Shown here in pieces: positions 8,776-62,150 of a stretch of 64,000 nucleotides of DNA (position 1 is its first letter; every line of letters begins with the position of its first letter). The stretch spans positions 1-64,000 of the IMG/VR virus record IMGVR_UViG_3300045988_094428. One strand, given 5' to 3'. The notes under the pieces were generated by a model. It worked only from the letters and a program-made list of their open reading frames with translations, had not been told where the DNA came from and ran no database searches. This DNA comes from a virus. Both the position numbers and the translations under genes were made by a program.

Positions 8776-9883
8776 GAAATGGTTGCCTGACCTTAAACAT
8801 ATCGTGAATTGCTGGAATATCCTTAGAGATTAACGTACCAACTATATGCGGTGACGTAATATAGGGCAGACAGGTTCTCTGATATGGTGAAAATCGTTAA
8901 TATTGGACAATCAGCAACCAAGCATCTAGCTTTGCTAGATGAAGGCTCAACGACTAAGTGCGATATAATATAAGTTAGATTAGAATTTATATAGAATGGA
9001 GGTGAAAATATGAGACATAAAAGTACATTAACAGAAAATGATAGCAATTTAGTAATTGAAATGTATAATAGTGGTATGTACCTAAAAGATATAGCCAGTT
9101 CTTTTCATTGCAGAGTGACTAAGATTACTGATATTTTACATGACGCTGGTATTAGAACAAACAATGAAGGGAAATATCTAAATCGGCTTGCAAATACAGC
9201 ATACTTTGACGTAATTGATAGCGAAGTAAAAGCGTATCTCCTTGGTTTTATAACCGCAGATGGTTCGGTTGGAGCAAGGACAGGGAGGAATTTTGGTAAA
9301 ACACTAAGGCTTGAACTTCAAGAGTCTGACGAGTCTATTTTGGATTTGCTCTCAAGCGAATTGAATATTAAAAGCAAGAAATATTATCACAATAAGAATG
9401 GGAAAATTACTGTTTCTGTTGGTATCAGTTCTACAGAGATAGTTGATTCTCTTGAAAAATACGGCGTGGTTGCTAATAAGACATACGTTCTCGAATCTTT
9501 ATTCATGGACTTACCAGATGATTTGTTGAGGGCATATTTACGTGGCCTTTTCGACGGTGATGGTAGTTTATATATTTCTAGCGGCATTGTTCATGGGAAC
9601 TTCACGGAAGGATTAGAGCATATCGTTGTGCAGTTCAGAGATATAATAAACTCCAAAATTGGCATCGAGAATACCACAAAGATTCAGTGCAATAATGGTG
9701 CATATCATGCTGTGTGGAATGGCTCTAATTGCGTAAAGCTATGTGAATATCTTTATAAGGACGCAAAATATTTCTTGCCGAGAAAATATGAATTTGCAAC
9801 TACAGCTATAAAGTCTAACTAATTCTAACTTATATTAAAGATATAGTCTGACCTTATTGGAAACAGTAAGATTAACAAAAATG
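8776..9883 (+). mobile_element. Putative group I intron (1108 nt) interrupting the phoH Walker A codon; carries a LAGLIDADG homing endonuclease ORF
   Basis: Exon 1 ends in U (8775), the element ends in G (9883). Joining 8775 to 9884 restores GTYGSG-KSFLSMQMGL, a canonical Walker A. The downstream ORF continues with PhoH motifs (ARGEGSAVGYLPGEFEQKV, VVDEAEDLTESQLRLVGTRLGQNSRIFFSGDYKQ). Confidence 0.5.
9010..9822 (+). CDS. LAGLIDADG homing endonuclease (intron-encoded)
   Basis: Two LAGLIDADG motifs (YLLGFITADGSV, LRGLFDGDGSL); own RBS GGAGGTGAAAAT-ATG. Confidence 0.7.
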   Translation: MRHKSTLTENDSNLVIEMYNSGMYLKDIASSFHCRVTKITDILHDAGIRTNNEGKYLNRLANTAYFDVIDSEVKAYLLGFITADGSVGARTGRNFGKTLRLELQESDESILDLLSSELNIKSKKYYHNKNGKITVSVGISSTEIVDSLEKYGVVANKTYVLESLFMDLPDDLLRAYLRGLFDGDGSLYISSGIVHGNFTEGLEHIVVQFRDIINSKIGIENTTKIQCNNGAYHAVWNGSNCVKLCEYLYKDAKYFLPRKYEFATTAIKSN

Positions 9884-10402
9884 AAATCATTTCTAAGTAT
9901 GCAGATGGGATTATATGGTGTAAATGAGAAAGGCTATCAGTCCAAGATTCTTGGTGTACGTGAAGCGCGTGGCGAAGGTAGCGCAGTTGGTTACTTGCCC
10001 GGAGAGTTTGAGCAAAAAGTTGGTGATTTCTTTAAGCCTTTGGAGCAACAGCTAAAAGGCGGTGAGTTTGAGTTGCAGAGTCTAAAGCAGCGTGGTGTAC
10101 TTGATGTTCAGATTCCTTATTATCTAAAAGGAACTACTTACGATAGCACCATTATGGTTGTTGACGAAGCAGAGGATTTGACGGAATCGCAGTTGCGTTT
10201 GGTTGGCACACGGCTTGGTCAGAACTCAAGAATTTTCTTTTCTGGTGACTATAAGCAGTCACTAATCAATAAGACTATTAGCAATCCGCTTGTTAAGATG
10301 TGTGACGAATTTAAGGGTAGCCCTAATTTTGCTTGCGTATTTCTTGACACCGATGTTCGTAGTGAAGCATCTAAGATGTTTGCTACTTTGTTTAAACAGT
10401 AA
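9884..10402 (+). CDS. phoH: PhoH-like ATPase exon 2 (remainder of Walker A and the PhoH core)
   Basis: KSFLSMQMGL... then PhoH-family DEAQ-like box VVDEAEDLT and GDYKQ motif. Confidence 0.55.
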   Translation, partial: KSFLSMQMGLYGVNEKGYQSKILGVREARGEGSAVGYLPGEFEQKVGDFFKPLEQQLKGGEFELQSLKQRGVLDVQIPYYLKGTTYDSTIMVVDEAEDLTESQLRLVGTRLGQNSRIFFSGDYKQSLINKTISNPLVKMCDEFKGSPNFACVFLDTDVRSEASKMFATLFKQ

Positions 10403-14600: not shown

Positions 14601-14699
14601 ATATGGGGTATTAGTCTAACTGGACAAAACATCACTCTCCTAAAGTGAATTTCTCCGTTCGAGTCGGGGATGCCCCACCAAAATTTTTCTCAAAACCAC

Positions 14700-14728
14700 T
14701 TGACAAATCGCAAAAAGTATGATAGAAT
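14700..14728 (+). promoter_or_regulatory. sigma70-like promoter
   Basis: aaaaccacTTGACAaatcgcaaaaagtaTGaTAGAAT. Confidence 0.55.
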
Positions 14729-15213
14729 ATAGGTGTTCCAAGGGGAATAGAAAGAAAGGTATATTGCATGAAATATGAGACTGTAAAAATGCACGAGTCT
14801 ATTCCTATGACACCGAAACGTCTTTATGAGTGGGCTGTTGCAAACGGTGTTGAAGATTGTCAGATGTATTTTCCGGCAGACGAGCTTGAATGAGATGTTT
14901 ATTTGACTATGGATGATATGTGTAAAGAACATCGTGATTTTGATAAGAACAAGGAAATGGTAGTCAATATTCGTAGGTAATTGTATGATGGTTTTTGTCT
15001 ATGAACTGAAATATGTTGATAAACGCAAATTAGTCCCAGTCACAGAGAGTCCAAAGACGAGGACAATCGCTACGGTGATTAACAAAGTTACTGGAAACGA
15101 TGTTAAGCGTTTGTATAATCGCTTGAAGCGAAGTGGCAATATGCCACAGATGGAATATCTAAAAGATGGAAATTATCGTATTATGTATATGGCACTGCCT
15201 AATGGGTTGAAGT

Positions 15214-16056
15214 TTGACCCATTCTATAAGGACGGGATATATTACAGAGGAAGGAGCGTATTTGACCGTGATGACACTTGATGACAGAATGAAAACTTAT
15301 TATGAGGGTGCATATCGTGTTTATCTGACACGGCGTATGCCTGTCATTATCCGAATCGACTCTCGTGCTGGGCACACCTTTACAAAGAATCTGAAAAAGC
15401 CCTTTGATGTAGTTTTCACTGCAACGATGCAGGATACAATGAAGTATCTGTGTGAAAACATTCAGGGTTGTGTAATTGGTTATACGCAGTCTGACGAGAT
15501 TACTTTGTGCCTTGTTGATTATGACAAGCTGGAAACCGATGCTTGGTTTGGTTATAATCTAAACAAACTGGTAAGCCTCAGTGCATCAATGGCTACGTTG
15601 GCATTTAATAAGTGCTTTGAACGTAATGCCAATAGAACCCTCACTAAGATGGCATTGTCCTCTGGCGTGAATAAGTTTGAAATTGACGCTTACTCTGCTA
15701 CATTGGCAAAGTGTAAAGAAAAGGGTTTGTGTTTCGATTCTCGCGCCTTTAATATCCCGAAGGAAGAGGTGTGCAACTGCTTCTTATGGAGACAGCTTGA
15801 CGCTTCTCGAAACAGTATTCAGGCGGTTGGTCAGGCTAATTTTTCGCATACCGTTCTGAATGGTAAGAATACTTCCGAGATTCAGGATATGTTGATGAAC
15901 GAGAAGGGTATCAACTGGAATAATCTTGCTACAGAATTGAAGCGTGGCTCTTGTTGTGTGCGAGATGAAGGTGGCTGGACTATCGACCATGAGATTCCTA
16001 AGTTCTCTGGCGATGGTCGTGATTACATCGACAAGCTGATTTATATCGGTGAATAA
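15214..16056 (+). CDS. Thg1-like protein (tRNA-His guanylyltransferase / 3'-5' polymerase family). True start probably ATG ~15274.
   Basis: VIIRIDSRAGHTFTK matches the Thg1 RIDGRxFhkF motif; GYTQSDEITLCL matches the Thg1 GQSDE motif. Confidence 0.6.
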   Translation: MTHSIRTGYITEEGAYLTVMTLDDRMKTYYEGAYRVYLTRRMPVIIRIDSRAGHTFTKNLKKPFDVVFTATMQDTMKYLCENIQGCVIGYTQSDEITLCLVDYDKLETDAWFGYNLNKLVSLSASMATLAFNKCFERNANRTLTKMALSSGVNKFEIDAYSATLAKCKEKGLCFDSRAFNIPKEEVCNCFLWRQLDASRNSIQAVGQANFSHTVLNGKNTSEIQDMLMNEKGINWNNLATELKRGSCCVRDEGGWTIDHEIPKFSGDGRDYIDKLIYIGE

Positions 16057-16083
16057 ATTTTAAAAAATATTTTCCAAACCCCT

Positions 16084-16111
16084 TGACAAATGACAAAAAA
16101 TTTGATATAAT
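16084..16111 (+). promoter_or_regulatory. sigma70-like promoter
   Basis: ccaaaccccTTGACAaatgacaaaaaatttgaTATAAT. Confidence 0.55.
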
Positions 16112-16136
16112 AAGGGTGTCAAGAGGAGGTGGTTGA

Positions 16137-16703
16137 ATGGCTACACGATGGTATGATTAGGTCTATCTTCCAAATCATCCGAGGGCAGGAACGAACGGAA
16201 ATGTATTTGTCCATGTAATTGTTGCTGAACAAAAGATTGGAAGATACCTGAAGCCGGAAGAAGTTGTTCATCATATCAACATGGATAAGCATGATAATCG
16301 ACCAGAAAATTTATTGGTTGTCGCTACAAATAGTGACCATGCGGCAATTCATAATGGATGTAACTATGAATTGGATAGTGATGGTGTGGCACATTCAATA
16401 AAGAAAGCGTGCTTTTGTAAGGTATGTGGAAAGATTATTTCTTATGGTTCTGAAATGTGTATTGATTGCTGGCATGAATTTTTGAACAAAAATAGTGCTC
16501 CACATAAAATAGTCGATGGACATTGCATAATTATAACACGTGATGAATTAAAATATAAGATACGCCATAAGTCGTTTGTCGGTATCGGCAAAGAATTTGG
16601 TGTCTGTGACAATACGATAAGAAAATGGTGTAAAAAGTACAACCTCCCTTTTAGAACAAAAGATATAAAGAAATATACAGATGAAGAGTGGGTGAGTGTT
16701 TAA
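16137..16703 (+). CDS. HNH homing endonuclease with an in-frame TAG at codon 8 (16158-16160)
   Basis: MATRWYD-TAG-VYLPNHPRAGTNG...VHHINMDKHDNRPENL is the classic HNH N-terminus and HNH motif, continuous across the TAG. Strong RBS AAGAGGAGG. The C-terminal ~60 aa is shared with the 17348-18100 ORF. Confidence 0.6.
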
Positions 16704-16898
16704 CACCCACTAATATACGTCCTTAGTGTAACGAATAGCACGAAAATCTCCAAAATTTTTAGTAACAGTTTGACTCTGTTAGGACGCGCCAGTTAGACTT
16801 TGTTTGGTTAAGTTAAACATCAATAGCTAGTCTATGTTGGTGAGTTAAAAACCAAGTTCGTGCGCACGAATTTCTTGCGGGAGCAAGGTCGTTTATAT

Positions 16899-16973
16899 GC
16901 GCTTATCGTTCAATGGATAGGACAAAACTCTTCTAAAGTTTTTATGTGGGTTCAATTCCTACTAGGCGTACCA
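16899..16973 (+). tRNA. tRNA-Arg (anticodon TCT), CCA encoded
   Basis: Acceptor GCGCTTA/TAGGCGT, D arm GTTC/GGAC, anticodon arm AAACT-CTTCTAA-AGTTT, T arm GTGGG-TTCAATT-CCTAC. Confidence 0.7.
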
Positions 16974-16974
16974 C

Positions 16975-17060
16975 AGACGCATACAGCAATCCATAAATTT
17001 TGATGGTTTAAAAAGAATGCTTAAAACAATCTTTTACGGTTCGATTCCGTTCTGCGTCTA
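16975..17060 (+). ncRNA. tRNA-like element, identity unresolved
   Basis: Acceptor-like pairing AGACGCA/TGCGTCT; T8A9; T arm ACGG-TTCGATT-CCGT. No convincing D/anticodon arm by hand; 85 nt. Confidence 0.3.
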
Positions 17061-17137
17061 ATTTTTAGTTATTCTTTATCTTTTTCTGAATCTGATAGAT
17101 ACGAACAGCAACACTTTCTTTGTTCGCGCCACTAATT

Positions 17138-17212
17138 GCGGATATAGTTTAGATGGTTAGAACGCCACACCGAAATGTGGAGACGTGGGTTCGAGTCCCA
17201 CTTATAGTCGTG
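17138..17212 (+). ncRNA. tRNA-like element, probably a pseudo-tRNA
   Basis: Canonical D arm (GTTT-agatggtta-GAAC) and T arm (GTGGG-TTCGAGT-CCCAC). The anticodon stem CCACA/TGTGG encloses only 6 nt. The acceptor stem does not pair. Confidence 0.3.
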
Positions 17213-17220
17213 TCTAATAT

Positions 17221-17293
17221 GCCCGGTTAGTCAAGTTGGCTAAGACGAGTGATTCTCAATCACTAGGCGGCAGTTCAATCCTGCCACCGGGTA
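17221..17293 (+). tRNA. tRNA-Glu (anticodon CTC), no encoded CCA
   Basis: Acceptor GCCCGGT/ACCGGGT, anticodon arm AGTGA-TTCTCAA-TCACT, T arm GGCAG-TTCAATC-CTGCC. Confidence 0.6.
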
Positions 17294-17298
17294 CTTTA

Positions 17299-17330
17299 TG
17301 GTCGAGTAGCTCAGTTGGTTAGAGCAGTAG
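17299..17330 (+). ncRNA. Truncated tRNA 5' fragment (acceptor + D arm), directly upstream of the PD-(D/E)XK endonuclease gene
   Basis: GGTCGAG-TA-GCTC-AGTTGGTTA-GAGC-A-GTAGA... but no matching 3' half (no CTCGACC) within 1 kb. Confidence 0.4.
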
Positions 17331-17347
17331 ATAAATGGGGTATGAAT

Positions 17348-18100
17348 ATGGTAAATTCAAAGATGAAAGGCAATATTGCAGAGTCGCGTATTTTATATGA
17401 ATTTGTTTAGAGAGGAATACCAGTTTCAATACCTTACGGCGATAATGAACGCTATGATATGATAGCGGAATTTAATGGAAAGCTGAATAAGATACAGATA
17501 AAGTTCTGCAATCAACAAATAGTTGATGGTTCGATAAGCTGTCCATGTTCTAATATAGTAAATCCATTAACAAAAAGTAAGCATAGAGAATTATATGTTA
17601 ATGATGTTGATTATATGGCATTTTACATATATGTATGGGATGTTGCTGTTATAATTCCAACAAGTTACATAGGGAATAGGATTCAGATAAAGATTAGAAA
17701 AGAACGTGCAAAGAACAATCAAACTACAGCTTCTACATTTGTTGATGACTTTACTTTTGATAAAATTGTTGGAGCAGATGTTCGTAATGTGATAGAAGAA
17801 CAACAAAATGTATATGAAAAAGCATATAATAGATGTGTTGATTGCGGATGTGCCATATCGGATAGGGCTGTGAGATGTTTAAGGTGTAGAAACTTGAAGC
17901 AATATGAAGAAACGGCAAATCCGAATATGATAGATAGAGACACGCTTAAATCCATGATTAGAAATATGCCATTTAAGCATATCGCATCTATATGTGGAGT
18001 TTCAGATAACTGTATTAGAAATTGGTGTAAAAGATATAATCTTCCATATCGTACATCTGACATTAAGAAATATACAGATGACGAGTGGAGTGATGTATAA
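17348..18100 (+). CDS. PD-(D/E)XK (Hjc/archaeal-resolvase-like) endonuclease with C-terminal domain shared with the HNH protein; in-frame TAG at 17408-17410
   Basis: GNIAESRILYEFV-TAG-RGIPVSIPYGDNERYDMIAEFNGKLNKIQIK matches the E..V...L...G..V..P..D...YD.I.E..GK...IQ.K nuclease core across the TAG. C-terminus ...NCIRNWCKRYNLPYRTSDIKKYTDDEW matches the 16137-16703 ORF. Confidence 0.5.
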
Positions 18101-18239
18101 TTTTTAGCTAATTACCAAAACAATATCCCACTGACATAATAATACCCATTTTTTCGGTTTGGCTAACAGCGCATAGCTATAAAAGTCTAGGATTATTGGA
18201 TAGGCTAACAATGACTGCTGGAAAGACAGCAATTTATAT

Positions 18240-18316
18240 GCGGCAGTAGTTCAACTGGATAGAACAATCGGCTACGAACCGATAGGTTGCGAGTTCAAGT
18301 CTTGTCTGCCGTACCA
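18240..18316 (+). tRNA. tRNA-Arg (anticodon ACG), CCA encoded
   Basis: Acceptor GCGGCAG/CTGCCGT, anticodon arm ATCGG-CTACGAA-CCGAT. Confidence 0.7.
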
Positions 18317-18438
18317 GATAAATGAGTCTCAAATTACGCTGGACAAAGGGGAGCCTTTTATGGGTGACTGTTATGACAGTGACCCTGATTATCGGTGACG
18401 ATACTAACTCATGAGAGTGCGTAAGCCGACATTTATAT

Positions 18439-18524
18439 GTGCGTGTATCCGAATTGGCATAGGAGCTGCTTTGAGATGGCAGTGTCGAAAGACATTGTGG
18501 GTTCAAGTCCCACCATGCACACCA
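18439..18524 (+). tRNA. tRNA-Leu (anticodon GAG), class II with GAAA-capped variable arm, CCA encoded
   Basis: Acceptor GTGCGTG/CATGCAC, anticodon arm CTGCT-TTGAGAT-GGCAG, variable arm TGTC-GAAA-GACA, T arm GTGGG-TTCAAGT-CCCAC. Confidence 0.65.
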
Positions 18525-18527
18525 AAA

Positions 18528-18649
18528 TACAGGATGGTTTCAATGGTAAAACATCGCCAAAATAAGAATGTGTCTATGTAGACATAAGCCGCAATTATTT
18601 TTTCTTAAAAGCCAAGACGAAGATGTTGGTTCGACCCCAACTCCTGTAT
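18528..18649 (+). ncRNA. 122-nt tRNA-like RNA 'A'. Perfect acceptor, D and T arms, but ~50 extra nt (with a TGTCTA-TG-TAGACA hairpin) in place of a normal anticodon arm.
   Basis: Acceptor TACAGGA/TCCTGTA (7/7), D arm GTTT-caatggta-AAAC, T arm GTTGG-TTCGACC-CCAAC. Internal segment cannot be folded into a 5-7-5 anticodon arm by hand. Confidence 0.4.
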
Positions 18650-18656
18650 TTATTAT

Positions 18657-18732
18657 GCGAGATTAACTCAACTGGAAGAGTGCTACCCTTACAAGGTAGA
18701 AGTTACAAGTTCGAGTCTTGTATTTCGCACCA
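18657..18732 (+). tRNA. tRNA-Val (anticodon TAC), CCA encoded
   Basis: Acceptor GCGAGAT/ATTTCGC, anticodon arm CTACC-CTTACAA-GGTAG, T arm ACAAG-TTCGAGT-CTTGT. Confidence 0.7.
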
Positions 18733-18818
18733 TACGACAGTTTATAAGCTAAACAAGTCCTGCCGTGGACAAAACAAAAACTTAATTTGCGGTTGAGTGA
18801 CCTTAAACTCACCATTAT

Positions 18819-18935
18819 GGCTGTGTAGCTCAATAGGCTAGAGCGCGTAAAACCTATCTATTTTAGATAGTAACAGCTACACATTTTTCCATTATAAGGA
18901 CGAGGTTTATGGTTCGAGTCCATACGCAGCCACCA
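18819..18935 (+). ncRNA. 117-nt tRNA-like RNA 'B'. Same architecture as A, with a ~50-nt insert containing a CTATCTA-tttt-AGATAG hairpin.
   Basis: Acceptor GGCTGTG/CGCAGCC, D arm GCTC-aataggcta-GAGC, T arm TATGG-TTCGAGT-CCATA, CCA encoded. Confidence 0.4.
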
Positions 18936-19327
18936 AAAATCTAAAAAAGAAGGGAAATGAATCCGATGCAGTAGATTGATAATAATAATCCTATGGTTTT
19001 CTTTCAAATGTTGGGTGAAGTTGCCGGTGATAACATCATGAGCAAGATTTCCCGACTAAAGATTAGTGAAGAAAATGGAATTGTTACTTTATATCTAAGA
19101 GATGAACGTGAACCGTTTAACGATAGTGAACTTAGACAGCTAAGATACATCTTAGAAAGATGGTATGATATAATTTCTTTTAGGCGTGAAGATAGGCTTA
19201 CTATGTTAGATATGAAGGTAAGAAAATAACCCTCCTTTATTTTTATATATAAAAAGACACATCCAGCAAACTTTTATTAAATTTTGAGTAGCCTTATGAT
19301 TCAATTTTTAATGTGTCTTTTAGATTT

Positions 19328-19415
19328 GCCAGTGTAGTTCAGTTGGTAGAACGCGGGTTTTGTAATCCCGATGCCGAAAGGGTTCTCGCAGGTTCGAGTC
19401 CTGTCACTGGCTCCA
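19328..19415 (+). tRNA. Class II (long variable arm) tRNA with atypical anticodon region CGGGT-TTTGTAA-TCCCG (anticodon TGT by canonical numbering; contains GTA)
   Basis: Acceptor GCCAGTG/CACTGGC perfect, D arm GTTC/GAAC, 17-nt variable arm, T arm GCAGG-TTCGAGT-CCTGT, CCA. Anticodon stem has a U-U at its base, so the loop is effectively 9 nt. Confidence 0.45.
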
Positions 19416-19416
19416 T

Positions 19417-19492
19417 GCCACTTTAATTCAGTAGATAGAATGATGCGTTCGTATCGCATACGTCGTAGGTTTGATTCCTACAGGTGGCTCCA
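19417..19492 (+). tRNA. tRNA-Thr (anticodon CGT), CCA encoded
   Basis: Acceptor GCCACTT/AGGTGGC, D arm ATTC/GAAT, anticodon arm ATGCG-TTCGTAT-CGCAT, T arm GTAGG-TTTGATT-CCTAC. Confidence 0.7.
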
Positions 19493-19630
19493 ATCGCACC
19501 TATGCTGTGGTAGAATAGGTATAGGCAAGTATTTTAACTACCGTGTCCATAGAGTTAATGGACTTGGGAGGTACTGACAAGACAGAAGAGCAAGTACCAT
19601 GCACGTGGGCGGGTATTCGTGCTTTCATTT

Positions 19631-19718
19631 GCGCTCGTAGCTAAGTTGGTATAGCACCGGACTTTTAATCCGGGGTGGATTATTCCTATCGTGGGTTCAA
19701 GTCCCACCGGGCGCACCA
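19631..19718 (+). tRNA. Class II-architecture tRNA with anticodon TTT (Lys-reading anticodon on a long-variable-arm scaffold), CCA encoded
   Basis: Acceptor GCGCTCG/CGGGCGC, D arm GCTA/TAGC, anticodon arm CCGGA-CTTTTAA-TCCGG (perfect), 17-nt variable arm with GGA/TCC stem, T arm GTGGG-TTCAAGT-CCCAC. Confidence 0.5.
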
Positions 19719-19866
19719 CGCGGTAAGTAGTTTTCGAGTTGCGACTATTGTAGCTGGTATTCGTAAAAAATATAGTAAATGCGTGATATGACAGTATGCC
19801 GCGTTTGTGTCAAGGAACAAGCACATTGCGGATAAACCGATGACTGCTGGAAAGACAGCGTTTTAT

Positions 19867-19943
19867 GTTTCCATAGCTCAGTTGGTTAGAGCGCAATCCT
19901 GATAAGATTGAGGTCGAATGTTCAATTCATTCTGGAAACACCA
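19867..19943 (+). tRNA. tRNA-Ile (anticodon GAT), CCA encoded
   Basis: Acceptor GTTTCCA/TGGAAAC, D arm GCTC/GAGC, anticodon arm CAATC-CTGATAA-GATTG, T arm GAATG-TTCAATT-CATTC. Confidence 0.75.
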
Positions 19944-19955
19944 CTTATTTATTAT

Positions 19956-20046
19956 GTGGTAGTACCCAAGAGGTTGAAGGGGCTTGCTTGGAAAGCAAGT
20001 AGGCGGCGTAAGCCGTGCAGGGGTTCAAATCCCTTCTACCACGCCA
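19956..20046 (+). tRNA. tRNA-Ser (anticodon GGA), class II, CCA encoded
   Basis: Acceptor GTGGTAG/CTACCAC, anticodon arm CTTGC-TTGGAAA-GCAAG, 19-nt variable arm GGCGGC-gtaa-GCCG, T arm AGGGG-TTCAAAT-CCCTT. Confidence 0.7.
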
Positions 20047-20173
20047 CGACCGTAAAGATGAACAAAATGGAGCATACGGTGTTACAAAACCGTCTCGGAG
20101 TGATTGTATCACAAGGGGATTTAACGGAATATATGCTCGATGCGTGGTTCGCAAAACCTAAATTGCAAATATG

Positions 20174-20247
20174 CGTCATGTGCCAGACGGCTAGGCGAGA
20201 GACTGCAAATCTCTTTTAGATTGGTTCGACTCCAATATGACGCTCCA
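20174..20247 (+). tRNA. tRNA-Cys (anticodon GCA), CCA encoded
   Basis: Acceptor GCGTCAT/ATGACGC perfect, anticodon arm AGAGA-CTGCAAA-TCTCT, T arm ATTGG-TTCGACT-CCAAT. Confidence 0.7.
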
Positions 20248-25099: not shown

Positions 25100-28063
25100 A
25101 TGAGTGAACTTCTGGATAAAATCATTGAAGCAAAAGGAGTTCTTGGTGATAGACAAGCAGAGATTATCGCAGAGGGTTATCCGCTTGAAGAGTGGAATCC
25201 AGAGAAAGGCTCTGCAAAATCTATCTTCAATGCTAACGACAATAATCCTTCAATGATGTGGATGAAAAAGGACTACTACTTTAAGGACTTCTCCACTGGT
25301 AAGGTGTTCGGTATCTTGGACTATTATATGTACAAGTTTGGTGAACCTTACATGAAGGCAGTTAAGCGTTTGTTAGATGAAACAAAGGTAAAATACGACC
25401 CATCTCTGTTTAGTTTTACAGCGCCAACTGAACAGAAGGATTATTTCAAGAACTTTAGATATCCTAAAATCGAAGATGATATTTCCGGTGTTGCGTTGGA
25501 GTATATGGCAAAGCGCGGTATTTCCGAAGAGACGTGTCGTTATGTCGGCCTTGGTTCTGATATGCATGGGAACGTTGCATATCAGTTTAGGGATTTGACC
25601 GGACGTGTTGTTACAGTCAAATATCGTCCTAGTCATGCAATTAAGAGTGGCGAACCAAAATATTTCTATCAGAAAAATGCTGATACTTGCCCTATTCTTT
25701 ATAACATTAACAAGATTGATATAACACAGCCGCTTTTGTTGACAGAGGGTATGAACGATACTATGGCCTGTATTGAGGCTGGCTTCAAAAACGTCGTAAG
25801 TATTCCATCTGGCGCAAATGATGATAACTGGATTAACTTTAACTATGAGTTCTTAGACCAGTTTGAAGATATTATCCTTTGGTTTGATAACGATGATGCT
25901 GGAGAAAGTGGTATGAAGAAAGCCATTCCTCGCCTTGGTGAATATCGTATTAAGATTGTCAAACCTACGGAGGATGATGAAGAAGCGGTTTATAATTACT
26001 ATCATAGCTTTAATGAGAATGTAGATATTCGTAAAACTGATGCGAATAATGTTTTGTTGGCTTGTGGTAGCGCAAGAATCCTCGCGTTGATTAACTCTGC
26101 CGAAGAAATTCCTATGGAAAGCGTTATCGACCTGATGGACGTTGAGGAATTTGATATTGAACAGACTGAATATATTCCGAGCGGTATCAATTCGCTTGAT
26201 AGACAGATTTACGGTTTCATTGACGGAACATTGAACATCTGGACTGCCTACTCGGGTTGTGTTGACTGTGACACAGAGTTCTTTGATGGTACTAAGTGGA
26301 AGCGAATTGCTGATTTCCAGAATGGCGATAAGGTGTTACAGTATAACGATGATGGAACAACGTCACTTGTTACTCCTTGGATTTATCATAAATACAAGGC
26401 AGATACGCTATGGCATTTTTCTGCCAGAGGAATTGACCAGTGCTTATCTGATGAACACAATGTATGTTATTGGGATTCTAATGGCAAAAGACGTGAGAAG
26501 ACGTTTGATGAAATTCATAAAATTCATGAGAAGAATGTAAATGGATTTAGCGGAAAATTTAAACGGTCTTTTGAGTATTCTGGCGTTGGCATTGATTTAA
26601 GTGATGCGGAAATTAAATTGATGTGCGCAGTTATTTGTGATGGTACTTTTACTCACAATAAAACTAACCTATGTAGATTCCATCTGAAGAAGGATAGAAA
26701 AAAAGTTGAGGTTCGTAAGATTTTTGACGAGTGTGGCATTAAATACACCGAGCGTGAATCCTCGGCAAATGGTTATACCGACTTTTATTTCTATGCCCCT
26801 CGCAGAGAAAAGGAATTTACAGATTATTGGTATGATTGCTCTTATGAACAACTGATGGTCATTTGTGACAACATCCTTTTTTGGGATGGCAGTATTGACA
26901 AAAAAGGTAGGCGTGTATTTTCAACGACAATCAAAAAAACGGCAGACTTTGTGCAGTTTGCCTTTAGTGCCACTGGTCGCGGTGCATCTATTGGCGTTGA
27001 TGACAGACGTGGGCAAAAATACATTACTTGTGGAAAGATATACACTAGAAAATCCGTCACATACCGTGTTGTTATTTCTGATAGGATTTTCTGTTCGATG
27101 ATTGCAAGAGAAGAATCGTCAAAAACAAAAATTGAGGAGTATAAAACTAAGGATGGATTTAAATATTGCTTTACTGTTCCGAGTCATACATGGATAATGC
27201 GCAGAAACAACTGTATTTGTGTCACAAATAACTGCGGTAAAACTACTATGATTTCTCAAACTGTAGTTCTTGAGGCGATTGATAAGGGAAATACGGTATT
27301 CTGGTTTAACGCCGAATCGACAACAAGCCAAATGTTGAACTGGGTTTTGGCTCAGGCGGCTGGTAGACAGCACTCTGTTGAGTATACTGGCGCTAACGGA
27401 TTCCAGTTCTATAAGCCGACTCCACAAGCGACGCAAGCTATTAAGCAGTATTATGCAAAGAAAATTTTCGTCTATGATAACTTGCTTTTGTCGAATCCAG
27501 ATATGGTTTTCAACAAGATGAAAGAAGTTTATAAGCGGTTTGGTACAAAAGTTTTTGTTCTTGATAACTGGCTGTGTCTGAATTTCCGTGGTATTTCTGA
27601 TACAGAGGTGACTGGTATTCAGGTTGATTTCATGAATAAATTGATTCATTTCACAAAGCAGAATGGGTTGGAAATTCATCTTGTTTGCCATCCTCGTAAA
27701 CAACAGGCCGGTATTCCTCTTTCCGAGTATGAGATTCTTGGTACATCTAACATTGTTAATATGGCTGATAGAATCTATGGACTCGAAAAGGTTTGGGACA
27801 ATGACTTGAAGGCGCTAGGTTACGACAGACAGTTTACGGTTTTTAAGGATAGAACGCTTGGAATCCATGGTGAAAGAATTGGACTCAGATATGACCGTGT
27901 AACCAGACGTTTGTATGGAGACGGTGATGATAAGTTCAAGCAGTATTCTTGGGATAAAGGTTTAATTAGATACAATACTCCTATTTTTGGTAAGAATGGC
28001 TTGCTTGTTGGCGATAGAGTTCTCGATTACGAGCAAGCCGCCGCCAACAATACTCCGTATTGA
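25100..28063 (+). CDS. DNA primase-helicase (TOPRIM primase + DnaB-like helicase) with an intein inserted in the helicase Walker A motif
   Basis: TOPRIM LLLTEGMNDTMACIE...WFDNDDAGE. Splicing 26257/27233 gives AYSG-CGKTT, i.e. GxxGxGKT. Helicase motifs downstream (IHLVCHPRKQ). Confidence 0.7.
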   Translation: MSELLDKIIEAKGVLGDRQAEIIAEGYPLEEWNPEKGSAKSIFNANDNNPSMMWMKKDYYFKDFSTGKVFGILDYYMYKFGEPYMKAVKRLLDETKVKYDPSLFSFTAPTEQKDYFKNFRYPKIEDDISGVALEYMAKRGISEETCRYVGLGSDMHGNVAYQFRDLTGRVVTVKYRPSHAIKSGEPKYFYQKNADTCPILYNINKIDITQPLLLTEGMNDTMACIEAGFKNVVSIPSGANDDNWINFNYEFLDQFEDIILWFDNDDAGESGMKKAIPRLGEYRIKIVKPTEDDEEAVYNYYHSFNENVDIRKTDANNVLLACGSARILALINSAEEIPMESVIDLMDVEEFDIEQTEYIPSGINSLDRQIYGFIDGTLNIWTAYSGCVDCDTEFFDGTKWKRIADFQNGDKVLQYNDDGTTSLVTPWIYHKYKADTLWHFSARGIDQCLSDEHNVCYWDSNGKRREKTFDEIHKIHEKNVNGFSGKFKRSFEYSGVGIDLSDAEIKLMCAVICDGTFTHNKTNLCRFHLKKDRKKVEVRKIFDECGIKYTERESSANGYTDFYFYAPRREKEFTDYWYDCSYEQLMVICDNILFWDGSIDKKGRRVFSTTIKKTADFVQFAFSATGRGASIGVDDRRGQKYITCGKIYTRKSVTYRVVISDRIFCSMIAREESSKTKIEEYKTKDGFKYCFTVPSHTWIMRRNNCICVTNNCGKTTMISQTVVLEAIDKGNTVFWFNAESTTSQMLNWVLAQAAGRQHSVEYTGANGFQFYKPTPQATQAIKQYYAKKIFVYDNLLLSNPDMVFNKMKEVYKRFGTKVFVLDNWLCLNFRGISDTEVTGIQVDFMNKLIHFTKQNGLEIHLVCHPRKQQAGIPLSEYEILGTSNIVNMADRIYGLEKVWDNDLKALGYDRQFTVFKDRTLGIHGERIGLRYDRVTRRLYGDGDDKFKQYSWDKGLIRYNTPIFGKNGLLVGDRVLDYEQAAANNTPY
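26258..27232 (+). mobile_element. Intein (~325 aa) with LAGLIDADG-type endonuclease region in the primase-helicase P-loop
   Basis: Begins CVDCDTEFFDG (Cys1), ends ...VTNN followed by Cys+1 (CGKTT); internal AVICDGT and LFWDGSI DG motifs. Confidence 0.55.
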
Positions 28064-28075
28064 TGAGGTGACGTA

Positions 28076-29734
28076 ATGGCAAATTATACAATTTACCATC
28101 TTCATACCATGCTAAGTAATGCAGTAACAAATATCGACTCAGTTACTACGTTTAAGCAATACATAAAAAGAGCACAAGAGTGCGGTATGACCGCACTTGC
28201 TTTTTCAGAGCATGGTAATATTTTTGAATGGGTTCACAAGAAAGACGCTGTTGAAGCCGCTGGTTTGAAATATATTCATGCAATGGAGGCATATCTTACA
28301 GAGCGCATTCCAGATGAGGGCGAAGAAAAAATTCGTGATAACTACCACTGTGTTTTGATTGCCAAAAACTGGGAGGGTGTTAAGGAACTTAACCGTTTAC
28401 AAGGAAAGGCATTCAATAGAACAGACGGTCATTACTACTACGCACCGAGAATTACATTTGCTGAATTATTTGCTACAAGTAATAATATCATTATTACCAC
28501 AGCTTGTGTTGCATCTGCATTATGCAAAGGAACAGAAAGCGCGAAGGCGTCATATCTTAGATTTCTGACGAGACATAAAGATAGATGCTTCTTGGAAGTT
28601 CAGCATCATAATACGCAAAAGCAGTTTGAGTATAATAGATATTTGGCAAATCTGTCTAAGGAAACTGGTCTTAGATTGATTGCTGGTACTGATACGCATT
28701 GTTTAAACGCAGAGCATGAACTTGGTCGTAGCGCACTACAGCGTGGCAAGGGCGTTTTTTTCGATGATGAAGTCGGTTGGGATTTGACATGGAAAACCTA
28801 CGATGAACTTGTCGAGGCATATAGAACGCAAGATGCTCTCAGTGAAGAAGAATATATGTCTGCAATCAATAACACAAATGTTATGGCAGATATGATTGAA
28901 ACCTTTGAACTTGATAGAAGTTTCAAGTACGCAAAGATTTACGATGATGGTGAAAAAGTCCTCCGTGAAAAGTTGTTTGCGCCAGAAACTATCGAGCCGA
29001 TTATCAAGGAGGGATTTTCAAGAGAAGAAGTAACTGCGCGTTTGGAGCAGGAAATTGACACTTTTAAGGCTTTGAACGCAACTGACTTTATTCTTCTCGA
29101 AGACCATATTGTGCGTTGGGAGCATTCGCATGATATGTGGCAAGGCCCTGCGCGTGGAAGCGCCGCTAGTTCCTTGGCTTTGTACGCTTTGGGCGTGACA
29201 GAAGTGAACCCATTGAAATATGGATTTTATTTCTGGCGATTCATGGATAAATCTAAGTACAGCTTGGCTGATGTTGATATGGATAACTCGGCAAAAGACC
29301 GTGATAAACTGAAGTTCTGGATGTTGAACGACCACCTAGACCTTCCGAATGTCAAGACTTGTGAAATTATTACGTTCAACACAATCGCATTAAAGGGCGC
29401 AATTCGTGATATTGGACGTGGATTGGATATGCCTCTCGATGAGGTTGATACGATTGCAAAAGCTGTTCATGAAGTAGCAGTCGATGAAGAAAAGATTGTT
29501 ACTATTGATGATAGCTGGCGTAAGAAATATCCAGAGTTGTTCAAGTACGTTGATATTGTTATTGGCACTATCGTTAGCATCGGTTCTCATCCGTCTGGTG
29601 TTGTTGTTTCCGACCATGACATTGAATCGGAATTTGGCCTGTGCTATCTAAAAGATGACCCCTATCCTGTCTCCTGCATCAATATGAAGGAACTTGATTC
29701 CCTTAATTTTACCAAACAGGATGCCCTTGGGTAA
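28076..29734 (+). CDS. dnaE: DNA polymerase III alpha (DnaE-like), N-terminal portion (PHP domain through the finger region); reading frame leaves the polymerase around 29711-29734
   Basis: PHP-domain start YHLHTMLSNAV...ALAFSEHGNIFEW. C-terminal end ...CINMKELDSLNF aligns to the DnaE LLKMDF box. Confidence 0.6.
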   Translation: MANYTIYHLHTMLSNAVTNIDSVTTFKQYIKRAQECGMTALAFSEHGNIFEWVHKKDAVEAAGLKYIHAMEAYLTERIPDEGEEKIRDNYHCVLIAKNWEGVKELNRLQGKAFNRTDGHYYYAPRITFAELFATSNNIIITTACVASALCKGTESAKASYLRFLTRHKDRCFLEVQHHNTQKQFEYNRYLANLSKETGLRLIAGTDTHCLNAEHELGRSALQRGKGVFFDDEVGWDLTWKTYDELVEAYRTQDALSEEEYMSAINNTNVMADMIETFELDRSFKYAKIYDDGEKVLREKLFAPETIEPIIKEGFSREEVTARLEQEIDTFKALNATDFILLEDHIVRWEHSHDMWQGPARGSAASSLALYALGVTEVNPLKYGFYFWRFMDKSKYSLADVDMDNSAKDRDKLKFWMLNDHLDLPNVKTCEIITFNTIALKGAIRDIGRGLDMPLDEVDTIAKAVHEVAVDEEKIVTIDDSWRKKYPELFKYVDIVIGTIVSIGSHPSGVVVSDHDIESEFGLCYLKDDPYPVSCINMKELDSLNFTKQDALG

Positions 29735-31088
29735 ACAATCCTGCCCAAGTAAAAGCGAGTTATATGCTGGGAAGTGCTTAGAGCCTCAGTTACCAAAGTG
29801 TGACAATACTGAGGATTGCACAATCAGCAGGCACGATAAGTTCTGCCTCAACGACTATGGGAATATCCCAACTGTCATAGAGTGATTTATGACAGTAACC
29901 TCGCTGAAATGATATAGTCTGGTCTGCATTTAATAGTGCAGAGTCAAGCAGAAATGACTTGACATTTTGTTTGCTTTCTGATATAATATATGTAAAGGTG
30001 GTGATTGTATGGCGAAAGCAAGATATACGAAAGTGTAGTTCTATAATGAAATACTCCGGTTGTATAAAGAGTATGGCGAGATAAACCAAAATATCTACGC
30101 AAAACACACAAGTCTTGATGTTAGCTTTAGACAGTATTGTAATAAGTACGGTGGATTAAAGCAGATATGTAAAGACCTTGGAATAGAGTATAGCTATTAT
30201 AATGAAGTTTCCAAAGAGCAAGCGCTTGAACGTGGGCGAATGTTGCTAGAGCAATATGGATTCTTGCGAAAGGAACTTTGTCAAAAGAACGGAATATCAT
30301 CTAGTACAGTTGCGAAACTGTTTGGAAGTTATCAAAACTTTTATAAGGAAGTTGGATATAACACAGACTTTCGTAGAGATGTTCCAGTTGAAGCTGTAAG
30401 AAAAGATATACTCGAATTTATAACCGAAACTGGTTCTAAGTCAATTACAGACTACAAGAAAGCGCATCGGTATTCACAATCTATAATTGATAGATGTGGT
30501 GGGTGGCATACAATTCTTGTTGATATTGGAGTAGAACCAAAGAAATGGCGTAATGGTAAAGACAATATAATCAAACAGACACGTGAATTGATAAACAAAT
30601 ATGGTTATCTGTCAAGTAAACTAATAGAAGATAATTGCGATTTTACTTTGCAAGCGTTGGAGTATTACTTAGGAAACGCTGATAGTATTTGCAAATATTT
30701 CGGTAATGAGCATTTATTTGACTACGGCAGAAGTAGTCAAGAACTCAGAATAGCAGAGTTACTCGAAGATATTCTAGGTGTCGGGAATTTTTCACGTGAA
30801 GTTGCATGGGATTGGTTGTTGTCAGACAGCGGCAATCATCTGTATGTGGACTTTTATATTGATTCTTTAAAAGTTGCGATAGAATATGACGGTGAGCAAC
30901 ACTACAAATACGTTGAAAGGTTTCATAGAAATTATGATGGGTTTCTTGAATATCAGCGTAGAGATAATATAAAGAGTTCGTTGCTTGCAGAACATAACAT
31001 CAAACTTATTAGAATATCATATACGCAAGAAATATCAGAAAAATATCTAAGAGATATATTAAGCAAACAAAATTAACAAAATTACGTG
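29711..31088 (+). mobile_element. ~1.35-kb intervening sequence splitting dnaE (putative group I intron, boundaries approximate), carrying an endonuclease ORF and an internal promoter
   Basis: The DnaE alignment resumes in the next ORF (xDNVGIINE... vs TLTIINW...; AIMQEPQMAFVQEFCGYDFLRADKLRKIIGKK vs the DnaE YQEQVMQIA...GADLLRRAMGKK). Internal promoter gactTGACAttttgtttgctttctgaTATAAT at 29959-29988. Confidence 0.4.
30060..31076 (+). CDS. Endonuclease with C-terminal DUF559/Vsr-like PD-(D/E)XK domain, encoded inside the dnaE intervening sequence
   Basis: VDFYIDSLKVAIEYDGEQHY...RDNIKSSLLAEHNIKLIRI matches the Vsr-like restriction-endonuclease fold common in free-standing and intron-encoded HEGs. 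Confidence 0.5.
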   Translation: MYKEYGEINQNIYAKHTSLDVSFRQYCNKYGGLKQICKDLGIEYSYYNEVSKEQALERGRMLLEQYGFLRKELCQKNGISSSTVAKLFGSYQNFYKEVGYNTDFRRDVPVEAVRKDILEFITETGSKSITDYKKAHRYSQSIIDRCGGWHTILVDIGVEPKKWRNGKDNIIKQTRELINKYGYLSSKLIEDNCDFTLQALEYYLGNADSICKYFGNEHLFDYGRSSQELRIAELLEDILGVGNFSREVAWDWLLSDSGNHLYVDFYIDSLKVAIEYDGEQHYKYVERFHRNYDGFLEYQRRDNIKSSLLAEHNIKLIRISYTQEISEKYLRDILSKQN

Positions 31089-32621
31089 GATAACGTGGGT
31101 ATTATCAATGAAACTTGTAAATTAGCTGGCATCGAGAGATTGTCACCTAAGACGATTGACTTTGAGGATGATGCAGTTTGGAATAGTATCAAGGAAGATA
31201 CATCTTTGATTTTTCAGATGAACTCCAACTATGGTCAGCGCACAGTTGATAAGATGTTGTCACCAGAGGTTTACAGCAAGATTAAGAAGCAGATTCCTAA
31301 TATGACACGTTTGGATTTGCTGACGTTCATCAATGCTCTTATTCGTCCTTGCGGCAAGGGAGTTTATGATGATGCGACGAACGGCATCGTATCTAAAACA
31401 GGAATCAGAGAGATTGATGATTTGCTTGGTTCTTCTATGGGCTATGCAATTATGCAGGAACCTCAGATGGCTTTTGTTCAGGAGTTCTGTGGTTATGATT
31501 TCTTGAGAGCTGATAAACTTCGTAAGATTATCGGCAAGAAACTTGGTACACGTGACCAGCTTCCTATTATTAAGGAAGGTTGGGAAAAGAACGCAAAGGT
31601 CAAATATCATTTAACCGATGAGCAGTCTGACAAGATTATCAATCCGTTCTTACAGTGTATTCTCGATGCTACACGATATTCATTCTCGCTGGTTCATAGT
31701 TTGAGCTATTCTTGCATCAGCTATGAATGTGCATATCTGCGTTATCATTATCCGTTACAGTATTTGACTTCTTGCCTTAACGCATGGAACGGTGACGATA
31801 ACAAGACAGCAGAAGCTATTGAATACGCAAATAGTCGCAAGGTAAAGATTCTTGCGCCTAAGTTCAGACACGCAAAGGCAGAATATTTCTATGACCTTTC
31901 TACAAACAGTATTTATAAAGGTACGAGTAGTATCAAGGGATTAAATGCAGGGTATTCTGATTTCTTGTATTCTTTGAAGGATAATTCTTACAAGACATTT
32001 ACAGACCTACTGTACGATATTCAGGCATCTGGTATGCCTCGTGACCAAGTTGAAACTTTGATTAAACTTGACTACTTTGAGGAGTTTGGCACTTGCAGAG
32101 AGTTGGCAACAATCTTTAAGCAGTTCCAGTTCTTTAAGAAGGGCGAAGCGAAAACGATTGCTAAGAGCAAGATTCCAGACGAGATTACAATGAGCATTAT
32201 TAAACGCAATGCTAACGAAACCGAAAAGCAGTTTAATAAGCTGAATTGCCATAATATCTTAAATGAGATTGAACAGTACATTATGACAATGAATCTTGGT
32301 GATGTTGACATTAAAACCAAGATTGCTAATCAGCTTGAGTATATGGGTTACATTGGCATTAAGACTGACAAACCCGAAGATAGACCTAAAATTGTCATTC
32401 TTGAAATGAAGGTTATGAAACAGCGTGAATCTGTTGAGCCTTGGGGCGTTATCATTGATGCGCAGTCTATCGGTTCTGGTAAGCGCAGTTCTTATACAGT
32501 TCCTTATAAACTGTATAAACAGTGTAAGTTCAACAAGAATGATGTAATTAAGATTCGTGATTGGTATAAGAACAAACGTGGTTATTTCTATATTACTGAT
32601 TACGAGTTCGTGTTTATGTAA
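31086..32621 (+). CDS. dnaE: DnaE-like polymerase, C-terminal portion (palm/fingers to C-terminus)
   Basis: MQEPQMAFVQEFCGYDFLRADKLRKIIGKK and downstream segments align to Pol III alpha. Confidence 0.6.
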   Translation: MDNVGIINETCKLAGIERLSPKTIDFEDDAVWNSIKEDTSLIFQMNSNYGQRTVDKMLSPEVYSKIKKQIPNMTRLDLLTFINALIRPCGKGVYDDATNGIVSKTGIREIDDLLGSSMGYAIMQEPQMAFVQEFCGYDFLRADKLRKIIGKKLGTRDQLPIIKEGWEKNAKVKYHLTDEQSDKIINPFLQCILDATRYSFSLVHSLSYSCISYECAYLRYHYPLQYLTSCLNAWNGDDNKTAEAIEYANSRKVKILAPKFRHAKAEYFYDLSTNSIYKGTSSIKGLNAGYSDFLYSLKDNSYKTFTDLLYDIQASGMPRDQVETLIKLDYFEEFGTCRELATIFKQFQFFKKGEAKTIAKSKIPDEITMSIIKRNANETEKQFNKLNCHNILNEIEQYIMTMNLGDVDIKTKIANQLEYMGYIGIKTDKPEDRPKIVILEMKVMKQRESVEPWGVIIDAQSIGSGKRSSYTVPYKLYKQCKFNKNDVIKIRDWYKNKRGYFYITDYEFVFM

Positions 32622-60512: not shown

Positions 60513-61002
60513 CCTCCTAAATTAAAAATAAGGGTGTAGCATTAAGCTACACCCAACTTATTAAATGTACTTATCGTCAGTAATATACTCGTACTCTTCT
60601 GGAGTAATCCAGCCCTTTTTGGTTACATTATAGACCATCTTTTTAGTCCAGAAACCAGAATCGTAGTAATACTCAGCTTTCTTTCCGTGTGCGGACAGTT
60701 CCATATCGTCCATATATTGTACTTCCATATCTTCCATATCTTCCATACCGCCCATACTAGCGGTTTTCTCTTCTTCGACAGGTAGTTCAATATCACTCAT
60801 AACAGCAATATACTCAATCAAAGATTGTTGATTGCTAATCTGAGCATTGCGATGTTCGACCATCTTCTCCTCGTGAGGATTCATAATCGCCTTTTGAAAA
60901 ATCATAATTCTACCTCCATAAATCATTGTAGAATTTATTCATTCGCTATATCAATCTATATGAGTTGCCATGCTCCGCATGAGCAACCCAACAGCTATAG
61001 CA

Positions 61003-61956: not shown

Positions 61957-62150
61957 TAAACTTTGACACAACAACTAAACTAAGCCGTATATAGGCGTAC
62001 TGGCTCGAAAACCAACGCCATCGGCATAGAGTGGTTTAGTTATCTTTTATAATCTTCCAAGCAAGATAACAGGGTTATAACCTCCTTGTGTTTGAAGTCG
62101 AGAACCTAGCTTGCGCTATACGTAAGATTTTTTATTAGGGACTTTCAAAT

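Follow-up and report, generated by a model that had tools for sequence, protein, structure and literature searches.

The viral DNA analyzed here spans 64,000 nt (positions 1–64,000 of IMG/VR record IMGVR_UViG_3300045988_094428, hereafter the window, to which all coordinates refer), and its dnaE gene, coding for a DnaE-type replicative polymerase, is interrupted. Two open reading frames (ORFs) on the plus strand, 28076–29734 and 31086–32621, are successive portions of this single polymerase according to both Pfam and alignment, and the 1354 nt that separate the two halves hold a nuclease ORF and a sigma-70-type promoter. The upstream ORF contains the PHP domain and PF07733 (Pol III alpha NTPase), whose profile is covered to position 260 of 260 at the final residue. 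The downstream ORF starts at position 4 of the profile of PF17657 (finger domain), followed by HHH_6. An initial annotation of this DNA, made from the letters alone, had described a DnaE-type polymerase broken by an inserted sequence, and the consecutive order of the Pfam domains across the two ORFs agrees with it. It had also ended the polymerase homology at KELDSLNF (around 29711); homology actually extends to TKQDALG (29731), the final codon ahead of the stop, plus T29732. TKQDALG aligns, up to the stop, with the E. coli DnaE motif VKFDFLGLRTLTIIN, and the downstream ORF starts one residue past the missing L of that motif.

Alignment of both halves fixes the exon ends at U29732 and after G31086, and the halves are contiguous. 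Exon 1 (PHP and Pol III alpha palm/NTPase) corresponds to 28076–29732 by Pfam and by comparison with intron-less relatives, and its final base, U29732, is also the T of the in-frame TAA at 29732–29734. Exon 2 (fingers, HhH, and C-terminal domains) corresponds to 31087–32621, its initial UG completing the leucine codon U|UG. The mature polymerase is thereby predicted to be one 1063-aa protein, not two pieces. Among deposited sequences, those closest to this uncultured phage come from a human-faecal phage contig and from phages of Clostridia and Bacilli.

The insert, 29733–31086, is very probably a group I intron, mobile and of the IA2-like type found in phages. The initial annotation had hesitated between a group I intron with a homing endonuclease gene and a genuine two-piece polymerase. 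The former is favored because the splice sites follow group I logic, P1 and P10 can form, the RNA core covaries, relatives have intron-less alleles, the downstream half lacks start signals, and a homing footprint is visible in a related genome. A third arrangement would be a "fractured gene," with the endonuclease gene lying between split-intein halves and the polymerase joined by protein trans-splicing. The endonuclease family and the type of host protein are shared with such DnaE loci (Dassa et al. 2009, PMC2677866), but there are no extra residues at this locus: the exon ends are adjacent in uninterrupted homologs, the Pfam matches reach the ORF ends, and no room is left for an intein. This candidate was excluded by alignment to the uninterrupted homologs, and we give it next to no credence.

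Splice sites and intron-less alleles

The boundaries of the 1354-nt intron (plus strand) fit the group I rule: a U precedes the 5′ splice site, and a G (the omega-G, 31086) is the final base. The predicted join, GGG-UUG-GAU, restores the reading frame and encodes KQDALG-L-DNVGIIN. The ligated exons would read ..CCCUUGGGUUGGAUAACG.. at the junction, and the sequence restored by excision, DALGLDNVGIIN, agrees with the genes of four insert-free contigs (L001, L002, L003, and L008). These were found by scanning viral contigs with the spliced protein, and their polymerases are 97–98% identical. They read GAT GCA CTT GGC CTC/CTT GAT AAC GTG (..GATGCACTTGGCCTCGATAACGTGGG.. in the L001 type), that is, DALG-L-DNVG, which matches the predicted spliced product. 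Hence, related phages do have an uninterrupted dnaE. The same scan returned one contig carrying the insert (L009), and homologous inserts occupy the same dnaE position in L145, L146, and L147–149. A megablast search of the whole region against phages gave no match, and a search of viral contigs for an intron-less allele with the flank of the donor, GCCCTTGGGTTGGATAACGT, found none.

The 5′ strand of P1 is the exon sequence CUUGGGU (29726–29732), which pairs with GCCCAAG (29743–29749) and places the splice-site U in a U.G wobble. The internal guide sequence, read from the sequence at 29738–29749, consists of this P1 strand and of the P10 strand AUCC (29738–29741), which pairs with GGAU of exon 2 (31088–31091); its counterpart in L145 is GUCU/AGAU. 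Exon and guide covary, since 13 of the 15 family members show 8 different combinations, each of 7 bp with a terminal U.G. Exon 2 is preceded by G as the last base of the intron in all relatives; in L145, L146, L147–149, and Thomasclavelia phage TR-TP1, it opens with UAGAU or UAGAC.

The RNA core and the absence of P2 and P8

The structure derived from the window sequence comprises P3, P4, P5, P5a, P6, P7 (in a pseudoknot with P3), P7.1, P7.2, P9, and P9.1. Pattern scans for the R and S elements collected further relatives, and 15 distinct sequences were aligned; a genome-wide pattern scan returned mostly chance matches, with only L216, L248, and L251 belonging to the family. Among aligned cells, 93% are paired, versus 34–43% when the partners are slid by 1–3 columns, a comparison biased toward the unslid register by the drawing of the structure from one aligned sequence. 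Changes on both sides of a pair, which are unaffected by this bias, occur in 36 of 57 pairs, versus 10–17 in the slid controls. The covariation score is 0.52, versus ∼0.07 when slid, and none of 500 shuffles reaches the observed values.

All helices lie on the plus strand. The 5′ strand of P3, AGCGAG (29754–29759), pairs with CUCGCU (29900–29905), with three of the six pairs changed on both sides. The P4–P6 domain (29765–29847) includes P4 (29765–70/29824–29), P5 (29774–77/29818–21), P5a (29784–90/29808–14), and P6 (29830–33/29844–47). P5, P5a, and P6 covary, and P4, with the P and Q elements UAUGCUGG and AAUCAGCAGG, is invariant across the family alignment. The same is true of P7, whose 5′ strand GACUA (29853–29857), within the R element CUCAACGACUAU, pairs with UAGUC (29915–29919) in all 15 relatives. 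The R and S elements of the window are identical to those of the intron that Rfam recognizes in L016. P7.1 (29858–61/29867–70, conserved loop AAUAU) and P7.2 (29871–79/29888–96) occupy 29858–29896 and are changed on both sides in 3/4 and 9/9 pairs, respectively; P9 (29923–28/29937–42) and P9.1 (29943–48/29958–63, conserved loop CAGAAAUGA), at 29923–29963, are so in 4/6 and 5/6 pairs.

Two long-range helices enclose the ORF loop. Their 5′ arms lie at 29964–29984 and their 3′ arms, identified by complementarity, at 31032–31073, within the final codons of the endonuclease ORF: 29964–76 pairs with 31061–73 (13/13) and 29975–84 with 31032–41 (10/10). The first of these helices covaries in L147, L152, and L155 and persists as a plain hairpin in L216. 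This contig carries an ORF-less version of the intron of the window (∼306 nt), without endonuclease gene or internal promoter, in a dnaE that is otherwise intact. Its minimum-energy and centroid folds recover P1, P3, P4, P5, P5a, P7.1, P7.2, P9, P9.1, and P9.2, and its folding energy is −98 kcal/mol, versus −72 for shuffles (z = −5.5). L216 (CALUYR010000298.1, 7.3 kb) is binned as Candidatus Gastranaerophilales, but has a phage-type dnaE and neighboring genes resembling those in the window; probably, a phage contig was wrongly assigned to a bacterial metagenome-assembled genome.

In canonical IA2 introns, one finds P7, P7.1, P7.2, the P3 3′ strand, P8, J8/7, and the P7 3′ strand in that order, and after P7 eight distinct aligned relatives follow it. 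The position of P8 is empty in the window: within 29900–29919, just GA (29906–07) lies between the P3 3′ strand (29900–05) and the invariant J8/7-P7 sequence AAUGAUAUAGUC, which includes J8/7 (AAUGAUA, 29908–14) and the P7 3′ strand (29915–19). The canonical order of the relatives, P7.1-P7.2-P3′-P8, identifies the long hairpin as P7.2. The alternative of placing the P3 3′ strand before this hairpin, which would then be P8, was rejected, as nothing between P1 and P4 could pair with that strand. Where present, the P8 hairpin has 3–7 bp, and the relatives form a graded series from 7 bp (L156, L157, and L168) through 3–4 bp (L151, L153, and L147) to none. P2 is absent in every family member, with only UAAA between the guide sequence and P3. 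Compared with subgroup IA2, the family shows the two hairpins expected after P7 (P7.1 and P7.2, ahead of the P3 3′ strand) but no P2.

Seven distinct sequences lack P8: that of the window (shared with L009 and L187) and those of L216, L145, L152, L164, L180, and L155. They occupy different dnaE lineages and two insertion sites. Within this subset alone, 95.6% of the cells are paired and 23 of 45 pairs are changed on both sides, indicating that the structure was maintained following the loss of P8. In RNA reads, the spliced P8-less form would be expected to give CCCUUGGGUUGGAUAACGUGGG. A neighbor-joining tree (∼200 aligned bases) does not group the P8-less members and is too weak to separate a single loss from multiple ones; P8 may have been lost more than once. 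In the Azoarcus structure, P8 is chiefly the docking site for the L2 loop. By analogy, an intron without P2 would no longer need P8 as a dock for L2, which is one possible reason for its loss. Reviews count P8 within the catalytic domain (PMC3984707), and the literature searched yielded no report of group I introns naturally devoid of P8, which is weak negative evidence. On balance, we lean toward the view that the intron of the window belongs to natural group I introns that lack P8 and P2 and are still active ribozymes in an essential gene. If this is true, natural introns can do without a helix regarded as belonging to the conserved catalytic domain. The family provides matched natural ribozymes with full, minimal, and absent P8, plus the ORF-less L216, with which the role of P8 in folding and catalysis can be tested.

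Several observations weigh against a functional intron. P8, normally a helix of the catalytic domain, and P2 are missing, and self-splicing is not to be assumed. The Rfam group I model (RF00028), a scan named by the initial annotation as a check, is unmatched in the window at the gathering score and, within 29500–31300, also at E ≤ 10; the ORF-less twin L216 is likewise unmatched. The endonuclease ORF has an in-frame TAG at codon 10 (30036–30038), which under the standard code would leave it truncated or dead. Finally, a GTG exactly at the junction and the TAA closing exon 1 make separate translation of the two halves formally possible in the window phage.

The silence of Rfam is a failure of sensitivity, not evidence against the intron, because the model detects the positive control (the canonical dnaE intron of L016, 74 bits) and, just above threshold, two family members (L164, 56.5 bits; L155, 54.2 bits), yet misses the twin L216. 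In the Rfam alignment of L164, P7.2 and the P3 3′ strand are pushed into the columns of P3′ and P8, with many non-pairs. The missing P2 and P8 probably explain the failure. As the model misses most of the family, the number of such introns in gut phage genomes is probably underestimated.

The separate translation of the halves is the crux of the two-piece polymerase. Under this explanation, dnaE was split by a free-standing homing endonuclease gene or by a dead intron, and the halves assemble without RNA splicing: the N-terminal half would stop at the TAA and the C-terminal half would start from GTG 31086, perhaps coupled to the endonuclease stop 9 nt upstream. The position of the GTG, the stop closing exon 1, and the endonuclease ORF lying 9 nt from the C-terminal half and in the same frame are all as it would have them, the Rfam result is negative, and the loss of P8 might have killed the ribozyme. 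However, no Shine-Dalgarno sequence precedes the GTG, whereas GGAG or GGTGG is found at the right distance before every neighboring gene. Five related loci (L145, L146, L147, L152, and Thomasclavelia phage TR-TP1) have GTA as the junction codon, which is unable to start translation, and offer no in-frame start; gene callers begin the downstream piece of the relatives ∼43 codons in, so that the conserved LDNxGIIN segment is lost. Hence, separate translation of the C-terminal half is unlikely in the window and impossible in the relatives, and the GTG would simply be the terminal G of the intron followed by the UG that completes the leucine codon. Furthermore, P1 and P10 track the exon changes, the remaining helices covary even in the P8-less subset, and the RNA structure is kept in the ORF-less L216. 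A two-piece polymerase is thus very unlikely.

If the insert is a group I intron, splicing can be pictured as follows. The pre-mRNA would fold with the exon sequence CUUGGGU on the guide GCCCAAG, and free guanosine would attack after the U29732 held in the wobble pair. G31086 would then occupy the G-site, with exon 2 aligned by P10, and exon ligation would yield the uninterrupted message for the polymerase. The two long-range helices would return the distant 3′ splice site to the core, their 3′ arms lying in the last codons of the ORF.

The endonuclease gene and a probable homing event

The homing endonuclease gene probably extends from 30009 to 31076 on the plus strand, with 355 codons including the TAG. 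The initial annotation had started it at 30060, a TTG without Shine-Dalgarno sequence. ATG 30009 is the likelier start, because it is preceded by a strong Shine-Dalgarno sequence (AAAGGTGGTGA, 29994–30004) and the N-termini of homologs match from there: homologs of 352–354 aa open with MAIAKYTKEDFYNEIKRLYN, and the window counterpart reads MAKARYTKV-TAG-FYNEILRLYKEYG. Two other statements of that annotation, a C-terminal Vsr/DUF559-like nuclease and a consensus promoter oriented toward the gene, are supported, the former by Pfam, motif, and fold and the latter by a sigma-70-type element on the plus strand (29959–29987; TTGACA, 17 nt, TG-TATAAT, with an extended −10) that matches the consensus at 12 of 12 positions. 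A similar promoter-like element is found in L145 and L155. A hairpin that would sequester the ribosome-binding site at the endonuclease start (UUGCUUUC/GAAAGCAA) was considered and dropped, as it is not conserved in L145.

The endonuclease has homologs at 73%, 54%, and 52% identity, encoded by the dnaE inserts of L145, L146, and L147–149. D264, E275, Y276, D277, G278, Q280, H281, D302, and K305 are invariant in 28 homologs, and among them E275, D277, H281, and D302 correspond to the E-D-H-D residues characteristic of the EDxHD family, whose type member is I-Bth0305I (PMC3239194, PMC2677866). Helical repeats occupy the N-terminus (residues 50–215; PF18780, E = 5e-5), followed by the nuclease domain (225–338). 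This order agrees with that of I-Bth0305I, where an N-terminal DNA-binding region precedes a C-terminal nuclease (PMC3239194). The AlphaFold model (mean pLDDT 82.5) has helical repeats and then an alpha/beta domain, and the best domain-level match of the nuclease domain in a Foldseek search of PDB is E. coli Vsr (1vsr; probability 1.0, target TM 0.53, E = 0.035). The C-terminus resembles DUF559/DUF2726, with a Pfam DUF559 match below the cut-off (E = 0.018). PHROG families of homing and intron-encoded nucleases also match, and many phages share the nuclease domain, among them Staphylococcus phage Twort, where the protein is annotated as "intron-encoded protein B." Searches of PDB sequences with the single protein and with a profile gave no relevant match, and none to I-Bth0305I (3R3P); motif and modeled fold are what suggest a link to I-Bth0305I itself. 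The protein is predicted to be an EDxHD/Vsr-like homing endonuclease.

The TAG at codon 10 has parallels elsewhere in the window. In-frame TAG codons occur twice in an 819-aa metallophosphatase-domain protein (58053–60512, minus strand) and six times in a reverse transcriptase with a YMDD motif (60814–61974, minus strand) that looks like those of diversity-generating retroelements, where they fall in regions presumably conserved in such enzymes. TAG terminates at most 3 of the 59 long ORFs of the window, and the database protein of the L145 endonuclease has Q where the DNA has TAG. The presence of TAG inside apparently real genes, its rarity as a terminator, and the Q in the L145 protein suggest that TAG is read as glutamine (code 15) in the window phage. 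The window has 13 tRNA genes (14605–20247, plus strand): three for Arg, two for Thr, and one each for Trp, Glu, Leu, Val, Lys, Ile, Ser, and Cys. No suppressor tRNA with a CUA anticodon is among them.

The contig L009 bears traces of a transfer. Its insert differs from that of the window at 6 of 1354 positions, all within the ORF (99.6% identity), while the exons are 92–93% identical between the two. The exons of L009 are instead 98–100% identical to those of the intron-less L003 and L008, save near the junction, where seven sites from −41 to +1 match the window. The backbone is of the L003/L008 type everywhere else, with the nearest such sites at −95 and +10 and a difference private to L009 at −89. 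This pattern reads as a homing footprint: the intron would have entered a genome that lacked it, together with a short asymmetric co-conversion tract. The synonymous substitutions within this tract (GGC CTC to GGG TTG) provide both the splice-site U and the complementarity for P1 and P10. Together, window and L009 against L003 and L008 would constitute a clean natural homing event, its co-conversion tract mapped from −41 to +1. In the corresponding mechanism, the endonuclease encoded in the loop would be made from its own promoter and Shine-Dalgarno sequence and would cleave polymerase genes without the intron in co-infecting relatives, close to the site of insertion, whereupon repair would copy the intron and a few tens of bases of flank.

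These data also bear on whether the window copy is a decaying intron, which without P8 would splice poorly or need a protein helper, whose TAG-interrupted endonuclease may be inactive, and which is heading to loss. The absence of P8 and the TAG at codon 10 could be signs of decay, and the endonuclease start region is degenerate in L147. On the other hand, seven P8-less sequences from different dnaE lineages and two sites keep their pairing with both-sided changes, the interrupted gene encodes the replicative polymerase, the recent move into the L009 backbone needs an active endonuclease, and TAG is apparently a sense codon in the window phage. Decay is likewise very unlikely.

Related introns and other mobile elements

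As a kind of element, an intron with a homing endonuclease is well known. What goes beyond this is the loss of P2 and P8 in a conserved and evidently mobile family, the mapping of a natural homing event, and a TAG within the endonuclease gene. The T4 introns td, nrdB, and nrdD/sunY (subgroup IA2) resemble that of the window in their R and S elements (CAACGACUAU/GAUAUAGUC, similar to the td type), in the insertion of P7.1 and P7.2 ahead of the P3 3′ strand, and in looping the endonuclease ORF from a peripheral helix (in nrdD, the ORF is near the 3′ end, in P9.1). They also share an intron-internal promoter for the ORF, an in-frame stop right past the 5′ splice site, and homing with co-conversion of the flanks. 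In contrast, the intron of the window lacks P2 and P8, its endonuclease is EDxHD/Vsr-like, not GIY-YIG or HNH, its host gene codes for a Pol III alpha-type polymerase, and the 3′ arms of its closing helices are inside the last codons of the ORF.

The recA intron of Bacillus phage 0305φ8-36, which encodes I-Bth0305I, is likewise a group I intron in a phage gene of DNA metabolism (PMC3239194, PMC2677866), and its endonuclease combines an N-terminal DNA-binding region with a C-terminal Vsr-like nuclease bearing the E, D, H, and D residues. However, the host gene is another one, and the ORF is in the loop of P1 (PMC2677866) or in P5 (PMC3239194). The endonucleases also differ, as the one of the window has no sequence match to PDB 3R3P and has an N-terminus of PF18780-type helical repeats.

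The dnaE introns of L016 and L017 are also of group I, interrupt the same conserved K-x-D-x-LGL motif, and have their ORF downstream of P9. They differ in being inserted 4 codons upstream (VKL|DILGL in L016, where the intron spans 4650–5810), in having a canonical IA2 core with P2 and P8, which Rfam scores at 74 bits, and in encoding a GIY-YIG endonuclease. Within the intron family of the window, L180 uses another nearby dnaE site, AGGV|KCKFDMLGL. The K-x-D-x-LGL motif is a hot spot where introns have inserted independently. Thomasclavelia phages TR-TP1 and TR-TP2 (PQ571309 and PQ571310), isolated from the gut, share with the window the intron family, the insertion site (LG|LDNIG), and the endonuclease family (51% identity in the nuclease domain), and differ in having a P8 hairpin. 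In the record of TR-TP1 (L261), the intron region (1947–3300) is annotated as two "DNA polymerase" coding sequences and an "HNH endonuclease," without intron, and TR-TP2 is annotated likewise; such deposited genomes need the same correction to a single polymerase. The split gp43 A/B genes of some T4-like Aeromonas phages and the split-intein fractured genes also present a replication gene as two ORFs around an endonuclease gene. Their products are joined as proteins or not at all, whereas the window has ribozyme structure, splice-site pairing, and no downstream start signals.

Other polymerase genes are split elsewhere. In Lysinibacillus phage LC76P1 (L262, OP172811; 1725–2937), dnaE is interrupted at another position and annotated as three hypothetical proteins, with a group I–like core (AACGACTA ... 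AGAGATAGTC) ahead of the downstream piece. A dnaE homolog in L020 (4179–4492) has ∼310 nt extra between query residues 399 and 400, which could be an ORF-less intron or a protein insertion.

Another group I intron of the window lies in the PIN-PhoH gene (8790–9880, plus strand), as the initial annotation had proposed for phoH. It contains a LAGLIDADG ORF (9010–9822), apparently in the loop of P8 (AAGTTAGA/TCTAACTT), between an R element (CTCAACGACTA, at 8946) and an S element (AAAGATATAGTCTG, at 9837). The PIN ORF is at 8089–8790 and the PhoH ORF at 9857–10402, and Rfam does not detect this intron. The primase-helicase ORF (25100–28063, plus strand; 987 aa, Toprim) has an apparent intein in its Walker A loop (AYSG | CVDCDTEF...CVTNN | CGKTT), for which no Pfam intein match was found at E < 0.001. 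Some of the related phages carry several introns each: Rfam recognizes further group I introns in L155 (3338–3611, minus strand; 69.8 bits) and L151 (26–353, plus strand; 69.4 bits). L152 also contains a match to the RAGATH-18 RNA motif (7503–7565, minus strand; 60 bits).

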